In this document: in pieces, positions 47,406-51,271 of the stretch | Layout of the letters: every line of letters begins with the position of its first letter | Numbering within the stretch: position 1 is the first letter of the stretch | Assembly: GCA_041495365.1 (NCBI GenBank) | Contig: JBGQCL010000007.1 | Coordinates: 2,547-66,546, forward strand | Reading direction: 5' to 3' | Length of the DNA: 64,000 nt | DNA from: Kofleriaceae bacterium | Lineage (GTDB): Bacteria > Myxococcota_A > Polyangia > Haliangiales > Haliangiaceae | Program-made: the position numbers and the translations under genes | The notes under the pieces: generated by a model | Databases searched by the model: none | What the model was told of the DNA's origin: nothing | What the model saw: the letters and a program-made list of their open reading frames with translations, nothing else

Positions 47406-48521
47406 CTACCTTGCGGCGTCGAGCCGGATGCAGAACACCGCGCCCGGTTGGGCGTCCTCGATCCAGATCGCGCCGCCCTGGGCCTCGATCGCGAGCTTGC
47501 AGAACGCCAGGCCCAGGCCCCGGCTGCCGCGCGGGCCGGCGTCGCCCTGGACGAAGCGCTCGAACACGCGGTCGTGCAGCGCGGGGGGCACGCCGGGACC
47601 CGCGTCGGCGACGCGGAGCTCGACGGTGGCGGCCCCGGCGACGCTGGAGATCCGGACCCGGGTCTCGGCGGGGGCGTGGCGGATCGCGTTGTCGACCAGG
47701 TTCTCGAGCACCCGGCGGATCAGGTCGGGGTCGGCGTGGATCGTCTGCGGCGCGACATCGGCGACGAGCTCGACCTCGGCGCTGCGCGCCCGCGGCGCCA
47801 TCGCGCCGGCGATCTCGGCGGCGAGCTCGGCGATCTCGATCGGCTGCCGGACGGGGACCAGGCGGCCCTCGTCGGCCTTGCTCAGGTCGAGCAGGTTCAT
47901 GATCATGCGCAGCAGCGACTCGCTGTCGGACTTGATGCGGGCGGCGGCCGTCTGGCTGCGCGGCGCGAGCGCCCGGTCGCGGCCGATCAGCTCGCTGTTG
48001 AGCTTGATCGCGTGGACCGGGTTCTTGAGGTCGTGGACCAGGAACGCGATCAGCTGCTCGCGCTGGAGCTGCAGCCGGATGACGTCGTCGCGCTGGCGGC
48101 GCAGCAGCTCGAACGCCTCGTTGCGCTCGATCGCGATCCGGTGGAGCTTCATCGCGGCCTCGATCCGCAGCACGAGCTCGGCGGGCCGGAACGGCTTGGT
48201 CAGGAAGTCGTCGCCGCCGGCGAGCTGGGCGCGGTCGAACGTGTCGACGTCGCGCTGCGCGGTGAGGAACACGATCGGCACGTCCGCGCCGCGTGGCGAT
48301 TCGCGGATCCGGCGGCACGCCGTGACGCCGTCCATGCCGGGCATCTGGATGTCGAGCAGCACGCAGTCGGGCTGGTCGCGCAGGAACGCGGCGAGGCCGG
48401 CCTCGCCCGACGCGGCGAGCAGGACCCGGTAGCCCTCGTCCTCGAGCGTTGCCTGGGCGAGCGCGCGGTTCGCTGCGTTGTCGTCGACCACCAGCACGGC
48501 GTTGGGGCGACGGTCTTCCAT
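47406..48521 (-). CDS. Hybrid response-regulator receiver / histidine kinase
   Basis: N-terminal REC (VLVVDDNAANR...DCVLLDIQMPGMDG), HisKA H-box FLVHDLKNP, and a C-terminal HATPase_c (GLGLAFCK). Confidence 0.9.
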   Translation of the reverse strand: MEDRRPNAVLVVDDNAANRALAQATLEDEGYRVLLAASGEAGLAAFLRDQPDCVLLDIQMPGMDGVTACRRIRESPRGADVPIVFLTAQRDVDTFDRAQLAGGDDFLTKPFRPAELVLRIEAAMKLHRIAIERNEAFELLRRQRDDVIRLQLQREQLIAFLVHDLKNPVHAIKLNSELIGRDRALAPRSQTAAARIKSDSESLLRMIMNLLDLSKADEGRLVPVRQPIEIAELAAEIAGAMAPRARSAEVELVADVAPQTIHADPDLIRRVLENLVDNAIRHAPAETRVRISSVAGAATVELRVADAGPGVPPALHDRVFERFVQGDAGPRGSRGLGLAFCKLAIEAQGGAIWIEDAQPGAVFCIRLDAAR

Positions 48522-48529
48522 CGGCTCGC

Positions 48530-48535
48530 GCTATA
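48530..48535 (-). promoter_or_regulatory. Possible sigma-70-type -10 box TATAGC 8 nt upstream of the ATG at 48521
   Basis: Minus strand: TATAGC-gcgagccg-ATG. Same geometry as at 58647. Confidence 0.25.
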
Positions 48536-48588
48536 GTAAGGCGTGCCGGCAGGCACACAAGCGCGACCGGATGCCACGTTGCGCTCGG

Positions 48589-49752
48589 TCATCGCCAGCG
48601 CGGGATCGCGACCTCGAACGTGGTGCCAGCGGAGCCGGTCTGGAGGTCGATCGAGCCGCCGTGCAGCGACACCAGGCTGTGGACGATCGACATGCCCAGG
48701 CCGGTGCCGCCCTCCTTGGTCGAGAAGAACGGCTCGTAGATCCGCGGCACGACGTGCTCGGGGATGCCGGCGCCATCGTCGGACACCCGGATCACGCAGC
48801 GCGCGTCGTCGACCCGCACGCCGGCGGTGACGTGGCCGCCCGGCGGCACCGCCTCGCAGGCGTTGCGGATCAGGTTGAGCACCAGCTGGTGGACCTTGGC
48901 GACGTCGATCTCGGCGAGCACCTGCGCCGGCTCGGCCTCCATCGCCAGGGCCACGCCGTGCTGCTCGGCGGTCACGCGCTCCAGGTCGACGACCTGGCGG
49001 ACCAGCGCGACGACGTCGTGCTCCTGGGAGTGCAGCTCGGGCGGCCGGGCGAACACCAGGAACTCGTTGAGCAGCGCGGTCAGCCGCTCGATCTCCTTCT
49101 GCGCGAGCTCGGTCGGCTCGATCAGCCGGCGGTCGTCCGCCATGCGGCGCAGCCGGCGCTCGAGCAGCTCGAGCTGGAGCATCGCCGCGTTGAGCGGGTT
49201 GCGGACCTCGTGGGCGAGCCCGGCGGACATCGTCTGCATCGCCAGGATGCGGTCGGCCTGGGCGCGGCGCTCGCGGGTGACCAGCTTGTCCTCGGTGTCG
49301 AGCTCGTAGTGCTGGACCATGATCGCGAGCTCGCAGTCGAGCAGCTTGTGGACCGAGCGCATCACGGCGAGCGCCTCGCCGGGCGAGTACAGCTCGGCGA
49401 CGCTGTCCTGGTAGGCCAGGCGCAGCACCGTCATCGCGCTGAACATGTACTGCGAGGCGAGCCCGACCGCGACGTGGCGCCGGCCGATCCGGGACCGCTT
49501 CTCGTAGAACCGCTCGTCGTACGGCCCGAGCAGGCCGGTCGACATCCAGTCGACCAGCGAGATCCGGAGCCGGTCGACCTGCGCCGGGCCCGACAGCACC
49601 GCCGCGGCCCCCGTGCTGGCGAACACCGCCTCGTAGAACCGGCTCGCGATCGTCTCGAACCGGGGCGCCATCCGCGGATGGAGCTCGCGCAAACGCTCGC
49701 GATCACCGCCGTCGAGCCCGACGAAGGTGAACAGGTCGTCGAGGAGCGTCAC
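48589..49752 (-). CDS. Globin-coupled sensor histidine kinase (protoglobin sensor + HisKA + HATPase_c)
   Basis: N-terminal ~150 aa fit the protoglobin/globin-coupled sensor pattern (FVGLDGGDRERL...RFYEAVF...RIGRRHVAVGL). H-box GLAHEVRNPLNA. G-boxes at the C-terminus. Confidence 0.8.
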   Translation of the reverse strand: MTLLDDLFTFVGLDGGDRERLRELHPRMAPRFETIASRFYEAVFASTGAAAVLSGPAQVDRLRISLVDWMSTGLLGPYDERFYEKRSRIGRRHVAVGLASQYMFSAMTVLRLAYQDSVAELYSPGEALAVMRSVHKLLDCELAIMVQHYELDTEDKLVTRERRAQADRILAMQTMSAGLAHEVRNPLNAAMLQLELLERRLRRMADDRRLIEPTELAQKEIERLTALLNEFLVFARPPELHSQEHDVVALVRQVVDLERVTAEQHGVALAMEAEPAQVLAEIDVAKVHQLVLNLIRNACEAVPPGGHVTAGVRVDDARCVIRVSDDGAGIPEHVVPRIYEPFFSTKEGGTGLGMSIVHSLVSLHGGSIDLQTGSAGTTFEVAIPRWR

Positions 49753-51161
49753 TCGGCCGCACTCTCGGCGCCGGCGACCATCTTGCGGACGACCTCGATG
49801 TCCGAGCGGGGCGCCTCGTTGTACTGGTGCAGCCGGTACTGGATCGTCCGCACGCTGATCCCGAGCATCTCGGCGGCCTTCGAGGTCGACCCGCCGGTCG
49901 CCTTGAGGGTCTCGAGGATGGCGTAGCGCTCGAGATCGCGCAGCGTCGCGCCCGGGATGATCGGCATGCCGGACGGGGTGACCCGCGGCCGGACGTTGGG
50001 CGGCAGGTTGCGGGGCTCGACCAGCGGCCCGCTCGCCAGCACGACCGAGCGCTCGACCGCGTTCTCGAGCTCGCGCACGTTGCCCGGCCAGTCGTAGGCC
50101 ATGAGCAGCTCCATGGTCTCGGGCGTGAAGCCCTCCAGCGCCTTGCCGTTCTCCTTGACGTAGCGGTCGAGGAAGAACTTGCCGAGCGCCGGGACGTCGC
50201 TCTTGCGGTCGCGCAGCGGCGGCATCTCGAGCGCGACGACGTTGAGCCGGTAGTAGAGATCCTCGCGGAACCGACCCTTGGCGACCTCCTCGACCAGGTT
50301 GCGGTTGGTCGCCGCGATCACGCGAACGTCGACCCGGATCGTCTGGTTCCCGCCGACCCGCTCGAACTCGTGCTCCTGGAGGAAGCGCAGCAGCTTGACC
50401 TGGATCGACGGCGAGATCTCGCCGATCTCGTCGAGGAACAGCGTGCCGCCGTCGGCGATCTGGAACCGGCCGTCCTTGCGCGCCATCGCGCCGGTGAACG
50501 AGCCCTTCTCGTGGCCGAACAGCTCGCTCTCGAGCAGCGACTCGGCGAGCGCCGCGCAGTGCAGCTTGATGAACGGCCCCGACGAGCGCGGCGAGCGCTG
50601 GTGGATCGCGTTGGCGACCAGCTCCTTGCCGGTGCCGCTCTCGCCGGTGATCAGCACCGTCGCGCGGCTCGGCGCGACCTGGTCGACGACCTCGAACACG
50701 CGCTGCATCGGCGGGCTGATGCCGACGATGTTGCCGGGCGCGACCCGCTCGCGGACCCGCTGGCGCAGCTGGCGCGCCTCGCGCCGGACCGCCTGGTTCT
50801 CCAGCACCTTGGCGAGCACGACCAGCAGCTCCTCGAAGTTGAGCGGCTTGGTCAGGTACTCGGCGGCGCCGGCACGCATCGCCTCGATCGCCGACTGCAC
50901 GGCGCCGAACGCGGTCATCACGATGATCCCGGTGACCTCGTCGGTCGCCCGGATCTTCTTGACCAGCTCGATGCCGTCCATGCCGGGCATCTTGAGGTCG
51001 GTCACCACGATGTGGGGCGCGAAGGACTCGTACTTGCCGAGCGCCTTGAACGCGTCGGCCGCAGTCTCGACCTCGTAGCCCTCATCCCGTAGCAGCTCTG
51101 CCAGCGCAGTTCTTGCGTTGGCCTCGTCATCAACGACCAGGATTCGTCCCAAGCGGGTCAT
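49749..51161 (-). CDS. NtrC-family sigma-54-dependent response regulator (bacterial enhancer-binding protein)
   Basis: REC (ILVVDDE...VVTDLKMPGMDG), AAA+ sigma-54 activation domain (GESGTGKE, GSFTGA loop), and a Fis-type HTH (AAEMLGISVRTIQYRL). Confidence 0.92.
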   Translation of the reverse strand: MTRLGRILVVDDEANARTALAELLRDEGYEVETAADAFKALGKYESFAPHIVVTDLKMPGMDGIELVKKIRATDEVTGIIVMTAFGAVQSAIEAMRAGAAEYLTKPLNFEELLVVLAKVLENQAVRREARQLRQRVRERVAPGNIVGISPPMQRVFEVVDQVAPSRATVLITGESGTGKELVANAIHQRSPRSSGPFIKLHCAALAESLLESELFGHEKGSFTGAMARKDGRFQIADGGTLFLDEIGEISPSIQVKLLRFLQEHEFERVGGNQTIRVDVRVIAATNRNLVEEVAKGRFREDLYYRLNVVALEMPPLRDRKSDVPALGKFFLDRYVKENGKALEGFTPETMELLMAYDWPGNVRELENAVERSVVLASGPLVEPRNLPPNVRPRVTPSGMPIIPGATLRDLERYAILETLKATGGSTSKAAEMLGISVRTIQYRLHQYNEAPRSDIEVVRKMVAGAESAAE

Positions 51162-51173
51162 GTACGGCAGTCT

Positions 51174-51189
51174 AGCGATGATCGTGCCA
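51174..51189 (-). promoter_or_regulatory. Sigma-54 type -24/-12 motif P10 (EBP-kinase operon; putative autoregulation)
   Basis: Minus strand: TGGCAC-GATCA-TCGCT, then 12 nt, then ATG (51161). Confidence 0.65.
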
Positions 51190-51247
51190 GCACAATCCGC
51201 GCAGTTGCGTACGACTTTGTGCAAAACGCGCGTCCGGCGTGTGGGGC

Positions 51248-51271
51248 GCGCAAACCGTGCGTGATTTGCGC
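51248..51271. promoter_or_regulatory. Inverted repeat GCGCAAA-N10-TTTGCGC upstream of P10 (candidate enhancer/UAS)
   Basis: Read directly. Lies 59-82 bp upstream of the -24 element of P10. Confidence 0.35.

Follow-up and report, generated by a model that had tools for sequence, protein, structure and literature searches.

How does an oxygen signal reach a sigma-54 activator that is encoded together with two different histidine kinases? The question is raised by an operon in a 64-kb stretch of a Kofleriaceae bacterium (contig JBGQCL010000007.1 of assembly GCA_041495365.1; G+C about 72%), hereafter the window, where three co-directional minus-strand genes occupy positions 47406-51224 (Table 1). 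These encode an NtrC-type enhancer-binding protein (EBP) of the response regulator class, a globin-coupled histidine kinase, and a hybrid kinase of receiver (REC)-HisKA-HATPase architecture. To our knowledge, no O2-sensing pathway other than the Nmp system has been described that joins sigma-54 transcription to a globin-coupled kinase, and work on Nmp has been confined to Myxococcus xanthus. Judged by comparison with Nmp proteins and binding sites, the operon appears to be the Kofleriaceae form of this oxygen-response system, in which a four-protein relay has collapsed to a sensor-regulator pair.

NmpRSTU of M. xanthus was published in 2018 (PMC6211767) and 2025 (PMC11841059). NmpU, a protoglobin kinase homologous to AfGcHK, is active with O2 and phosphorylates two receivers, that of NmpS and that of NmpT, a REC-REC protein. 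NmpS is off in its phosphorylated state, and at low O2 it phosphorylates the NtrC-like NmpR (PMC6211767; PMC11841059). In vitro, it is NmpS and not NmpU that phosphorylates M. xanthus NmpR (PMC6211767). The experimentally defined NmpR sites, GCGCA-N5-TGCGC, usually occur as two copies 14-15 nt apart upstream of sigma-54 promoters, and NmpR activates its own operon (in which a CBS gene comes first), nmpUTS, and genes for a universal stress protein (USP), a P-type ATPase with cbb3 oxidase, and hemN with a hemerythrin (PMC11841059). The initial annotation of the window had proposed an O2-sensing master regulator of a sigma-54 regulon, and all the sequence features that it named are found where it placed them. 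That proposal is supported by the NmpR-type sites and the regulon match described below, but because NmpRSTU had already been described it is not a new concept. What looks new here is a globin on an NmpS-type transmitter, paired directly with NmpR and without NmpT.

A predicted sensor globin on an NmpS-type transmitter

The second gene of the operon had been annotated from its sequence as a kinase with a protoglobin-like sensor, and a Pfam search bore this out: a Protoglobin domain (PF11563, 86 bits against a cut-off of 25) is accompanied by HisKA and HATPase_c domains. The top solved relative of the sensor is the globin of AfGcHK (5OHE, E = 1.5e-27, 99.9 bits). His93 in IGRRHVAVGL, the candidate proximal ligand singled out earlier, aligns with the proximal His99 of AfGcHK, and Tyr40 aligns with its distal Tyr45, the haem roles of both AfGcHK residues being described (PMC8697598). 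For the remaining comparisons, proteins from the Anaeromyxobacter sp. K and A. oryzae loci served as Nmp references in place of the M. xanthus sequences, and the window globin is 40% identical (112 bits) to the Anaeromyxobacter NmpU globin. The transmitter is intact, with phospho-His181 in AHEVRNP and with NLIRNA, DDGAGI and GTGLG in the region of the N, G1 and G2 boxes.

In contrast to the sensor, the transmitter does not group with NmpU. It is 42% identical to the NmpS transmitters of Anaeromyxobacter sp. K and A. oryzae (164-170 bits), whereas identity to the NmpU and AfGcHK cores is 27% (84-91 bits), and it is not an orthologue of NmpU/AfGcHK-type transmitters. The same pattern is found in six other Kofleriaceae globin kinases (155-179 bits to NmpS versus 90-119 to NmpU/AfGcHK). 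In a multiple alignment, the NmpS homology spans from about 20 residues before the H-box through the C-terminus, as illustrated by the segment AGLAHEVRNPLNAAMLQLELLERRL of the window protein, which aligns with AGLSHEIRNPLNAAALQLSVLERRI of NmpS, and by a second aligned segment of the window kinase, EPFFSTKEGGTGLGMSIVHSLVSLHGGSI. Of the 21 residues that follow the phospho-His, on the receiver-contacting face of DHp helix 1, 16 are shared with NmpS and 8 with NmpU. By these measures the globin kinase is an NmpU/AfGcHK-type sensor globin fused to an NmpS-type transmitter.

When the transmitter by itself was searched against the full library, other globin fusions formed the nearest 50%-identity clusters, followed by kinases with an N-terminal REC domain, the NmpS cluster (P0418) among them. 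One further protein, P0422 (387 aa), shares 65% identity with Anaeromyxobacter NmpU in its globin and 53% with NmpS in its transmitter. It also keeps the NmpS segment that precedes the DHp domain, a combination that reads clearly as the footprint of a globin-for-receiver swap. On these identities, such a swap exists near the Anaeromyxobacter lineage too. The linker between the globin end and the phospho-His measures 32 residues in all 113 Kofleriaceae-type proteins and 26 in all 59 Anaeromyxobacter-type proteins. An argument about O2 polarity from this difference (32 vs 26, equal to -1 modulo 7) was dropped because the P0422 linker has 34 residues and the transmitters differ.

AfGcHK, from Anaeromyxobacter sp. 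Fw109-5, is active when 6-coordinate, as Fe(III), Fe(II)-O2 and Fe(II)-CO, and inactive as deoxy Fe(II) (PMC8697598). The window kinase resembles it in the distal Tyr and proximal His of its sensor globin and in being a soluble globin-HisKA-HATPase protein of about 380 aa. The two differ in HisKA subgroup (HEVRNPLNAA in the window, HDLRNPLGVI in AfGcHK), in linker length as given above, and in partner, a REC-REC protein for AfGcHK and, by adjacency, the EBP for the window kinase; the O2 polarity required of the window kinase is probably also the opposite.

An NmpR-type regulator directly upstream

The first gene encodes Response_reg, Sigma54_activat (246 bits), AAA_lid_14 and HTH_8 domains by Pfam, in agreement with the REC-AAA+-Fis architecture and GSFTGA loop originally reported. 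With LFLDEIG also present, the protein has the Walker A and B motifs, the GAFTGA-type loop and the Fis-type helix-turn-helix (HTH) of a sigma-54 activator. Its D55, V88 and K105 correspond, at an offset of +1, to the published D54, V87 and K104 of M. xanthus NmpR, MXAN_4240 (PMC6211767). In domain-wise BLAST against Anaeromyxobacter sp. K, the REC domain is 53% identical to that of NmpR (118 bits) and far closer to it than to the other receivers of that locus; the AAA+/HTH part is 64% identical (402 bits) to the rest of NmpR, and 16 of 20 residues are identical to Anaeromyxobacter NmpR in the recognition helix region. We conclude from these similarities that the EBP is orthologous to NmpR, and its gene is called nmpR below. 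None of the three operon proteins could be placed in a specific NCBIfam family, every match falling under its equivalog cut-off; the best were AtoC and ZraR for the EBP and AtoS and ZraS for the globin kinase. The NtrB-NtrC, AtoS-AtoC and ZraS-ZraR systems have their transmitter and regulator families in common with the window pair and differ from it in input, here a haem globin, and in regulon, here respiration and oxygen.

The EBP and globin kinase genes are tightly linked. The regulator's TGA stop and the kinase's GTG start overlap as GTGA, the 4-nt overlap noticed from the sequence, an arrangement of translational coupling. Of 51 loci in which the sequence reached far enough, 50 have nmpR as the next gene upstream of the globin kinase gene, at gaps of roughly -7 to +96 nt. 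Relatives at E <= 1e-20 numbered 1512, of which the closest 120 are 66-90% identical; those from Kofleriaceae metagenome-assembled genomes (MAGs) reach 83% identity. A gene for a REC-REC protein of NmpT type was found neither in the 64-kb window, which holds only two receiver domains, nor after the globin kinase gene in related loci. The Anaeromyxobacter sp. K and A. oryzae loci differ, with the order USP-CBS-nmpU-nmpT-nmpS and a convergent nmpR, in line with the organization given in the Nmp papers; in M. xanthus, likewise, nmpU-T-S and nmpR are separate, whereas the window EBP gene overlaps the globin kinase gene within one operon.

Taken with the specificity of M. xanthus NmpR for NmpS, the NmpS-type transmitter makes direct phosphotransfer from the globin kinase to the NmpR-like EBP, on balance, probable. 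The globin kinase would exchange phosphoryl groups with NmpR itself, and both the inverter of the canonical pathway (NmpU inhibiting NmpS, which activates NmpR) and the NmpT sink would be dispensed with. From its HE..N motif, the kinase is probably also a phosphatase of the EBP. Phosphorylated NmpR would then assemble on paired GCGCA-N5-TGCGC sites, activate sigma-54 RNA polymerase and amplify expression of its own operon.

The hybrid kinase as a probable accessory branch

The third gene follows exactly 67 nt after the globin kinase gene and encodes the Response_reg, HisKA and HATPase_c domains expected of the hybrid kinase first described there. The protein shares the domain architecture of NmpS but, by its similarity scores, is not an NmpS orthologue and forms a family of its own. 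Its core reaches 77 bits to NmpS and 77 bits to NmpU of the Anaeromyxobacter references, and therefore has no specific affinity to NmpS, and its receiver resembles those of NmpS and NmpT no more closely than that of NmpR. A reciprocal swap, by which the hybrid kinase would carry the displaced NmpU-type transmitter, was also considered and rejected, the equal scores giving no signal for it. In 22 of 53 Kofleriaceae-type loci a homologue (54-80% identity) is encoded no more than 6 kb from nmpR, in positions and orientations that vary (immediately downstream, upstream or divergent), and none was detected in the fetched sequence of the remaining loci, some of which are short contigs. All three genes stand in one operon in the window and in three of the related loci (L002, L003 and L043).

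These observations bear on the alternative that the operon works as a canonical, M. xanthus-like relay, with the O2-bound globin kinase turning off the hybrid kinase through its receiver, the hybrid kinase phosphorylating the EBP at low O2, and only NmpT lost. Such a relay would account for three architectures that match NmpR, NmpU and NmpS (PMC6211767) and for the presence of a REC-containing kinase of NmpS architecture in the same operon and, often, at linked positions in relatives; it would also keep the O2 polarity established for AfGcHK (PMC8697598), with no inversion needed. We nevertheless regard it as unlikely. The transmitter of the globin kinase is NmpS-type and not NmpU-type, neither the core nor the receiver of the hybrid kinase shows a preference for its Nmp counterparts, and the place of the hybrid gene varies while nmpR keeps its position directly ahead of the globin kinase gene. 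In one locus, moreover, the hybrid homologue is translationally coupled to a different, PAS-domain sensor kinase. Under the direct wiring that we favor, the hybrid kinase would be an accessory branch and not the central kinase, and it is probably a side branch that serves as a second input or as a phosphate sink.

The locus with the PAS-domain kinase (L012, 1403-7161) comes from a Myxococcales MAG. The hybrid homologue there overlaps the start of a gene for a PAS-PAS-HisKA-HATPase-REC kinase. Immediately downstream of this kinase pair are nmpR and the globin kinase gene; USP-USP genes stand ahead of the pair, and a hemerythrin gene and ccoNO follow. The arrangement suggests a second sensory branch into the same node. 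The 67-nt gap of the window contains a candidate weak sigma-70-type promoter, TTGTGT-N16-TACTAT, which matches 8 of 12 consensus positions and falls under the scan threshold; it is kept in L002 and L003 and absent from L043, where the gap is shorter. More speculatively, this internal promoter may give the hybrid kinase a basal, constitutive expression.

Sigma-54 promoter and NmpR-type sites of the operon

The regulator gene is preceded by a sigma-54 promoter, the -24/-12 motif with 12-nt spacing of the initial annotation. The mechanical open reading frame (ORF) of the EBP extends from 49749 to a TTG at 51224 (minus strand), but the start is likely the ATG at 51161. The TTG is disfavored because it lies upstream of the conserved promoter, and the ATG is kept 12-13 nt past the promoter in most of the 45 homologous loci (from Kofleriaceae, Haliangiales and related MAGs) over which the upstream layout was compared. 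A TGGCAC-N5-TCGCT or -TGGCT promoter precedes nmpR by 13-14 nt, counted from GC to ATG, in 32 of the 45.

Two dyads of NmpR type stand upstream of this promoter. At the position of the first, S1 (about -101 from the ATG), a GCGCA-N5-TGCGC with at most two mismatches occurs within 3 nt in most of the 45 loci and is often perfect. The second, S2, is degenerate in the window; its block, ACGCGNNNTTTGCAC, is kept in the close relatives L001-L005, as is the S1 block, and more distant loci have a good second site at the equivalent position, about -72. S1, S2 and the sigma-54 promoter form one layout upstream of nmpR across the loci examined. An inverted repeat GCGCAAA-N10-TTTGCGC, previously put forward as the enhancer, is indeed present, but the conserved elements are the two dyads. 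Its right arm coincides with the right half of S1, and because its left arm is window-specific and unconserved in L001-L005, the repeat is best seen as a coincidental extension of S1. Nor does it qualify as a terminator: no T run follows it, and a scan of 46900-51500 for sigma-70 promoters and terminators called none. From the conserved layout we infer, with good support, that the operon is autoregulated by its EBP.

The architecture of the window, sigma-54 promoter with NmpR sites, was not found in the Anaeromyxobacter loci by the same criteria. The region before nmpU in Anaeromyxobacter sp. K (L082, 9913-10004) carries a sigma-70-like TTGACC-N17-TACATA and no clear sigma-54/NmpR-site architecture. 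Autoregulation in Anaeromyxobacter may not be conserved or may be different.

A predicted low-oxygen regulon

A further dozen or so promoters in the window share the site-pair and sigma-54 design of the operon. The initial annotation had placed the operon amid O2- and stress-related genes, and Pfam confirms this setting. The products comprise fused CcoNO, CcoP, CcoG and FixH with the Cu-ATPase of the oxidase, a FixI-like P-type enzyme; HemN and a hemerythrin, with the gene of a HemG-type flavodoxin diverging from theirs; three USPs, two of them as a USP-USP pair; a CBS protein; Hsp20; and two more hemerythrin-like proteins. Also behind such promoters are a cluster for multihaem c-type cytochromes, a DksA/TraR zinc-finger gene and several genes whose products have no assigned function. 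The layout of the operon, S1 followed after 14 or 15 nt by S2 and after about 29 nt by TGGCAC, recurs at the ccoNO and Hsp20 promoters, and one site pair is common to the divergent promoters of a CBS-domain protein and a 290-aa protein (Table 1). Control of the surrounding O2-related sigma-54 genes by the EBP is supported because their promoters carry the M. xanthus NmpR site and the genes match the NmpR regulon.

Exact GCGCA-N5-TGCGC sites number 8 in the window against 1.2 expected, and pairs of sites 14-16 nt apart number 6 against 0.48. For sites with at most two mismatches, the spacings peak at 15 nt, and their total is not enriched (174 observed, 221 expected). Gaps of 17-19, 28-30 or 49-51 nt, whole helical turns, separate the pairs from the -24 element. 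Eleven sigma-54 16-mers with a score of at least 9 are followed by an ATG after 12-13 nt, where 0.16 were expected and 100 Markov simulations gave at most 2. An ATG at this distance means an essentially leaderless mRNA, which implies, if the predicted promoters are the ones used, a regulon whose sigma-54 transcripts have little or no leader. In the literature on myxobacteria, the only mention of leaderless mRNAs that was found concerns sigma-A promoters. Two promoters depart from the pattern: that of Hsp20 at 55991(-) has a 33-nt spacer before the ATG, with AAGGAGG within it, and that of the multihaem cytochromes at 27446(+) has its ATG 24 nt downstream.

The predicted regulon is, by inference from its genes, a low-oxygen regulon, and on that premise the kinase should be net-ON when deoxy. 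The globin kinase would be net active with deoxy haem and off, or phosphatase-active, with O2 bound, like FixL and opposite to AfGcHK. The wiring could instead be direct but O2-ON, as in AfGcHK, serving oxygen, re-oxygenation or oxidative stress, or the ligand could be NO, CO or the haem redox state. The activity of AfGcHK as Fe(III), Fe(II)-O2 and Fe(II)-CO (PMC8697598), the conserved distal Tyr and proximal His, and the general stress genes of the regulon (USPs, Hsp20 and the DksA-like protein) would all fit. We consider this quite improbable, given that the regulon core of high-affinity cbb3 oxidase with its assembly genes, O2-independent HemN, HemG-type flavodoxin and hemerythrins consists of classic low-O2 genes and that the orthologous M. 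xanthus regulon is hypoxia-induced in an NmpR-dependent manner (PMC11841059). That the clustering is spurious, with the EBP confined to its own operon or to unrelated genes and the neighboring sigma-54 promoters answering to other activators, is very improbable: myxobacteria do encode dozens of EBPs (PMC6211767) and sites with up to two mismatches are no more frequent than expected, but perfect sites and pairs exceed expectation as given above, their distances to the -24 element are phased, the layout upstream of nmpR is kept across the 45 loci examined, the motif is the verified NmpR site, and the recognition helix region has 16 of 20 residues in common with Anaeromyxobacter NmpR.

Table 1. 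Positions of the operon genes, their key residues and the associated regulatory elements in the window.
Feature	Position	Strand	Details
EBP gene (nmpR-like; NtrC-type enhancer-binding response regulator)	49749..51161	-	470 aa
EBP key residues			phospho-acceptor Asp55, Val88, Lys105; Walker A GESGTGKE 173-180; GSFTGA loop 220-225
EBP Fis-type HTH	residues 425-444
Globin-coupled histidine kinase	48589..49752	-	387 aa; GTG start
REC-HisKA-HATPase hybrid kinase	47406..48521	-	371 aa; Asp57, His163; N, G1 and G2 boxes intact
Sigma-54 promoter of the operon	51189..51174	-	TGGCACGATCATCGCT; -24 GG, -12 GC (canonical GG-N10-GC); 12 nt before nmpR ATG
S1 dyad	51262..51248		ACGCACGGTTTGCGC (ACGCA-CGGTT-TGCGC); 1 mismatch to GCGCA-N5-TGCGC; 58 nt upstream of promoter
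S2 degenerate dyad	51233..51219		ACGCGCGTTTTGCAC (ACGCG-CGTTT-TGCAC); 3 mismatches; 14 nt downstream of S1, 29 nt upstream of promoter
Inverted repeat GCGCAAA-N10-TTTGCGC	51271..51248		right arm = right half of S1; left arm window-specific
Candidate weak sigma-70-type internal promoter	48533..48560	-	TTGTGT-N16-TACTAT; in 67-nt gap before hybrid gene
ccoNO-ccoP-ccoG-fixH-P-type ATPase promoter	18461..18550	+	S1 GCGCAGGTGGTGCGC, 15 nt, S2 ACGCAAACGCTGCGC, 29 nt, AGGCACGGCAGTTGCG, ATG 13 nt on
Divergent promoters with one common site pair	54892..55005	both	sites at 54927 and 54957
Promoter to unknown 290-aa protein	54907	-
Promoter to CBS-domain protein	54990	+
Sigma-54 16-mers with ATG after 12-13 nt (eleven)	16365(-), 18535(+), 33910(+), 39378(-), 40944(-), 41092(+), 51189(-), 53103(+), 54907(-), 54990(+), 60390(-)

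Neighboring genes of the window

The divergent region 16149-16441, between the HemG-type flavodoxin gene (15499-16170, minus strand) and hemN (16483-17904, plus strand), contains three phased NmpR-type sites at 16149, 16179 and 16207 and a second pair at 16396 and 16427. This pair is upstream of the strong promoter 16365 (-), which is followed by a 38-aa hydrophobic ORF (16336 to 16222). No convincing sigma-54 promoter for hemN was found in the region.

Multihaem c-type cytochromes are encoded at 27486-28694, 28684-29376, 30913-31956 and 31923-33797. This cluster (27384-33797) has its own site pair at 27384 and 27414 and the promoter GGGCATTTTCCTGGCA (27446). It is possibly an anaerobic electron-transfer branch of the regulon, one not reported for M. 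xanthus.

The DksA/TraR-type zinc-finger gene (40538-40915, minus strand) is preceded by promoter 40944(-). A counterpart is found in Anaeromyxobacter sp. K (L082, 15402-15713), and a gene of this type is linked to Nmp genes in A. oryzae as well; it looks like a conserved and undescribed Nmp companion. Promoter 41092(+) shares its site pair with the DksA-like gene and drives, within 41092-44452, an unknown 216-aa protein, after which comes an 890-aa protein with GNAT and ADP-forming acyl-CoA synthetase domains, the architecture of Pat-like protein acetyltransferases. The stretch 44459-46213 (minus strand), which separates the Pat-like gene from the region of the Nmp operon, holds a gene for an XRE-HTH and Peptidase_M78 (ImmA/IrrE-like) protein (45029-46213) and, next to it, a 187-aa ORF without a Pfam match. 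The G+C of this segment is slightly lower, at 0.68-0.70, and for that reason it is maybe an inserted module.

Discussion

The window system and NmpRSTU have in common an orthologous NtrC-like regulator, the same DNA site, paired with 14-15 nt between the two copies, sigma-54 promoters and positive autoregulation. They also share the regulon themes of CBS, USP, cbb3 with P-type ATPase, and hemN with hemerythrin, and a protoglobin haem sensor on top. They differ in that the window has no NmpT, places the globin on an NmpS-type rather than an NmpU-type transmitter and contains a REC-bearing kinase that is not an NmpS orthologue. Its promoters would, by their spacing, give leaderless transcripts, and its regulon would add multihaem cytochromes, Hsp20, the HemG-like flavodoxin and the DksA/TraR-like protein.

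FixL-FixJ of rhizobia and DosS/DosT-DosR of mycobacteria are haem-based two-component systems for hypoxia. The pair proposed here would resemble them in that a haem kinase acts straight on a regulator and in that low O2 leads to cbb3 oxidase and hemN (FixLJ) or to USPs (DosR) (in part PMC11841059). Those systems, however, use a PAS or GAF sensor with a LuxR/NarL-type factor, whereas the window combines a globin with a sigma-54 EBP.

Several points weigh against a direct, deoxy-activated pair, in addition to the hybrid kinase of NmpS architecture discussed above. The predicted partner specificity is read from transmitter homology, and in a by-eye comparison the REC alpha-1 positions usually tied to specificity differ between the window NmpR and that of Anaeromyxobacter. 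Anaeromyxobacter homologues stand in for those of M. xanthus, and the U-type nature of M. xanthus NmpU is the papers' description. A canonical NmpS, NmpT or NmpU could be encoded elsewhere in the genome. At the operon's own promoter, S2 is a poor match to the NmpR site. Finally, the deoxy-ON polarity is an assumption drawn from regulon content and not from sequence, and AfGcHK is O2-activated (PMC8697598).

With these points in mind, the fullest form of the proposal is offered tentatively, at somewhat short of an even chance. In Kofleriaceae and in P0422-type lineages, an NmpU-type globin would have replaced the NmpS receiver, giving a one-step switch from O2 to sigma-54 transcription in which deoxy haem turns the kinase ON and in which the regulon is almost entirely leaderless, with the ATG 12-13 nt past the promoter.

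The lineage concerned comprises abundant, uncultured soil myxobacteria. If direct transfer is true, a single exchange of the input domain is enough to reduce an inverter-containing relay of four proteins to a two-component pair. The proposal also predicts a globin-coupled kinase with an O2 polarity opposite to that of AfGcHK, which would make the sign of the signal in globin-kinase linkers testable on natural sequences and would provide matched natural pairs, the same globin on two transmitters with opposite output polarity. The cis-code described here, in which dyads occur in pairs at phased distances from the -24 element and an ATG stands 12-13 nt past the promoter, could serve as a regulon predictor for Myxococcota metagenomes, and it raises the little-explored matter of leaderless translation from sigma-54 promoters.

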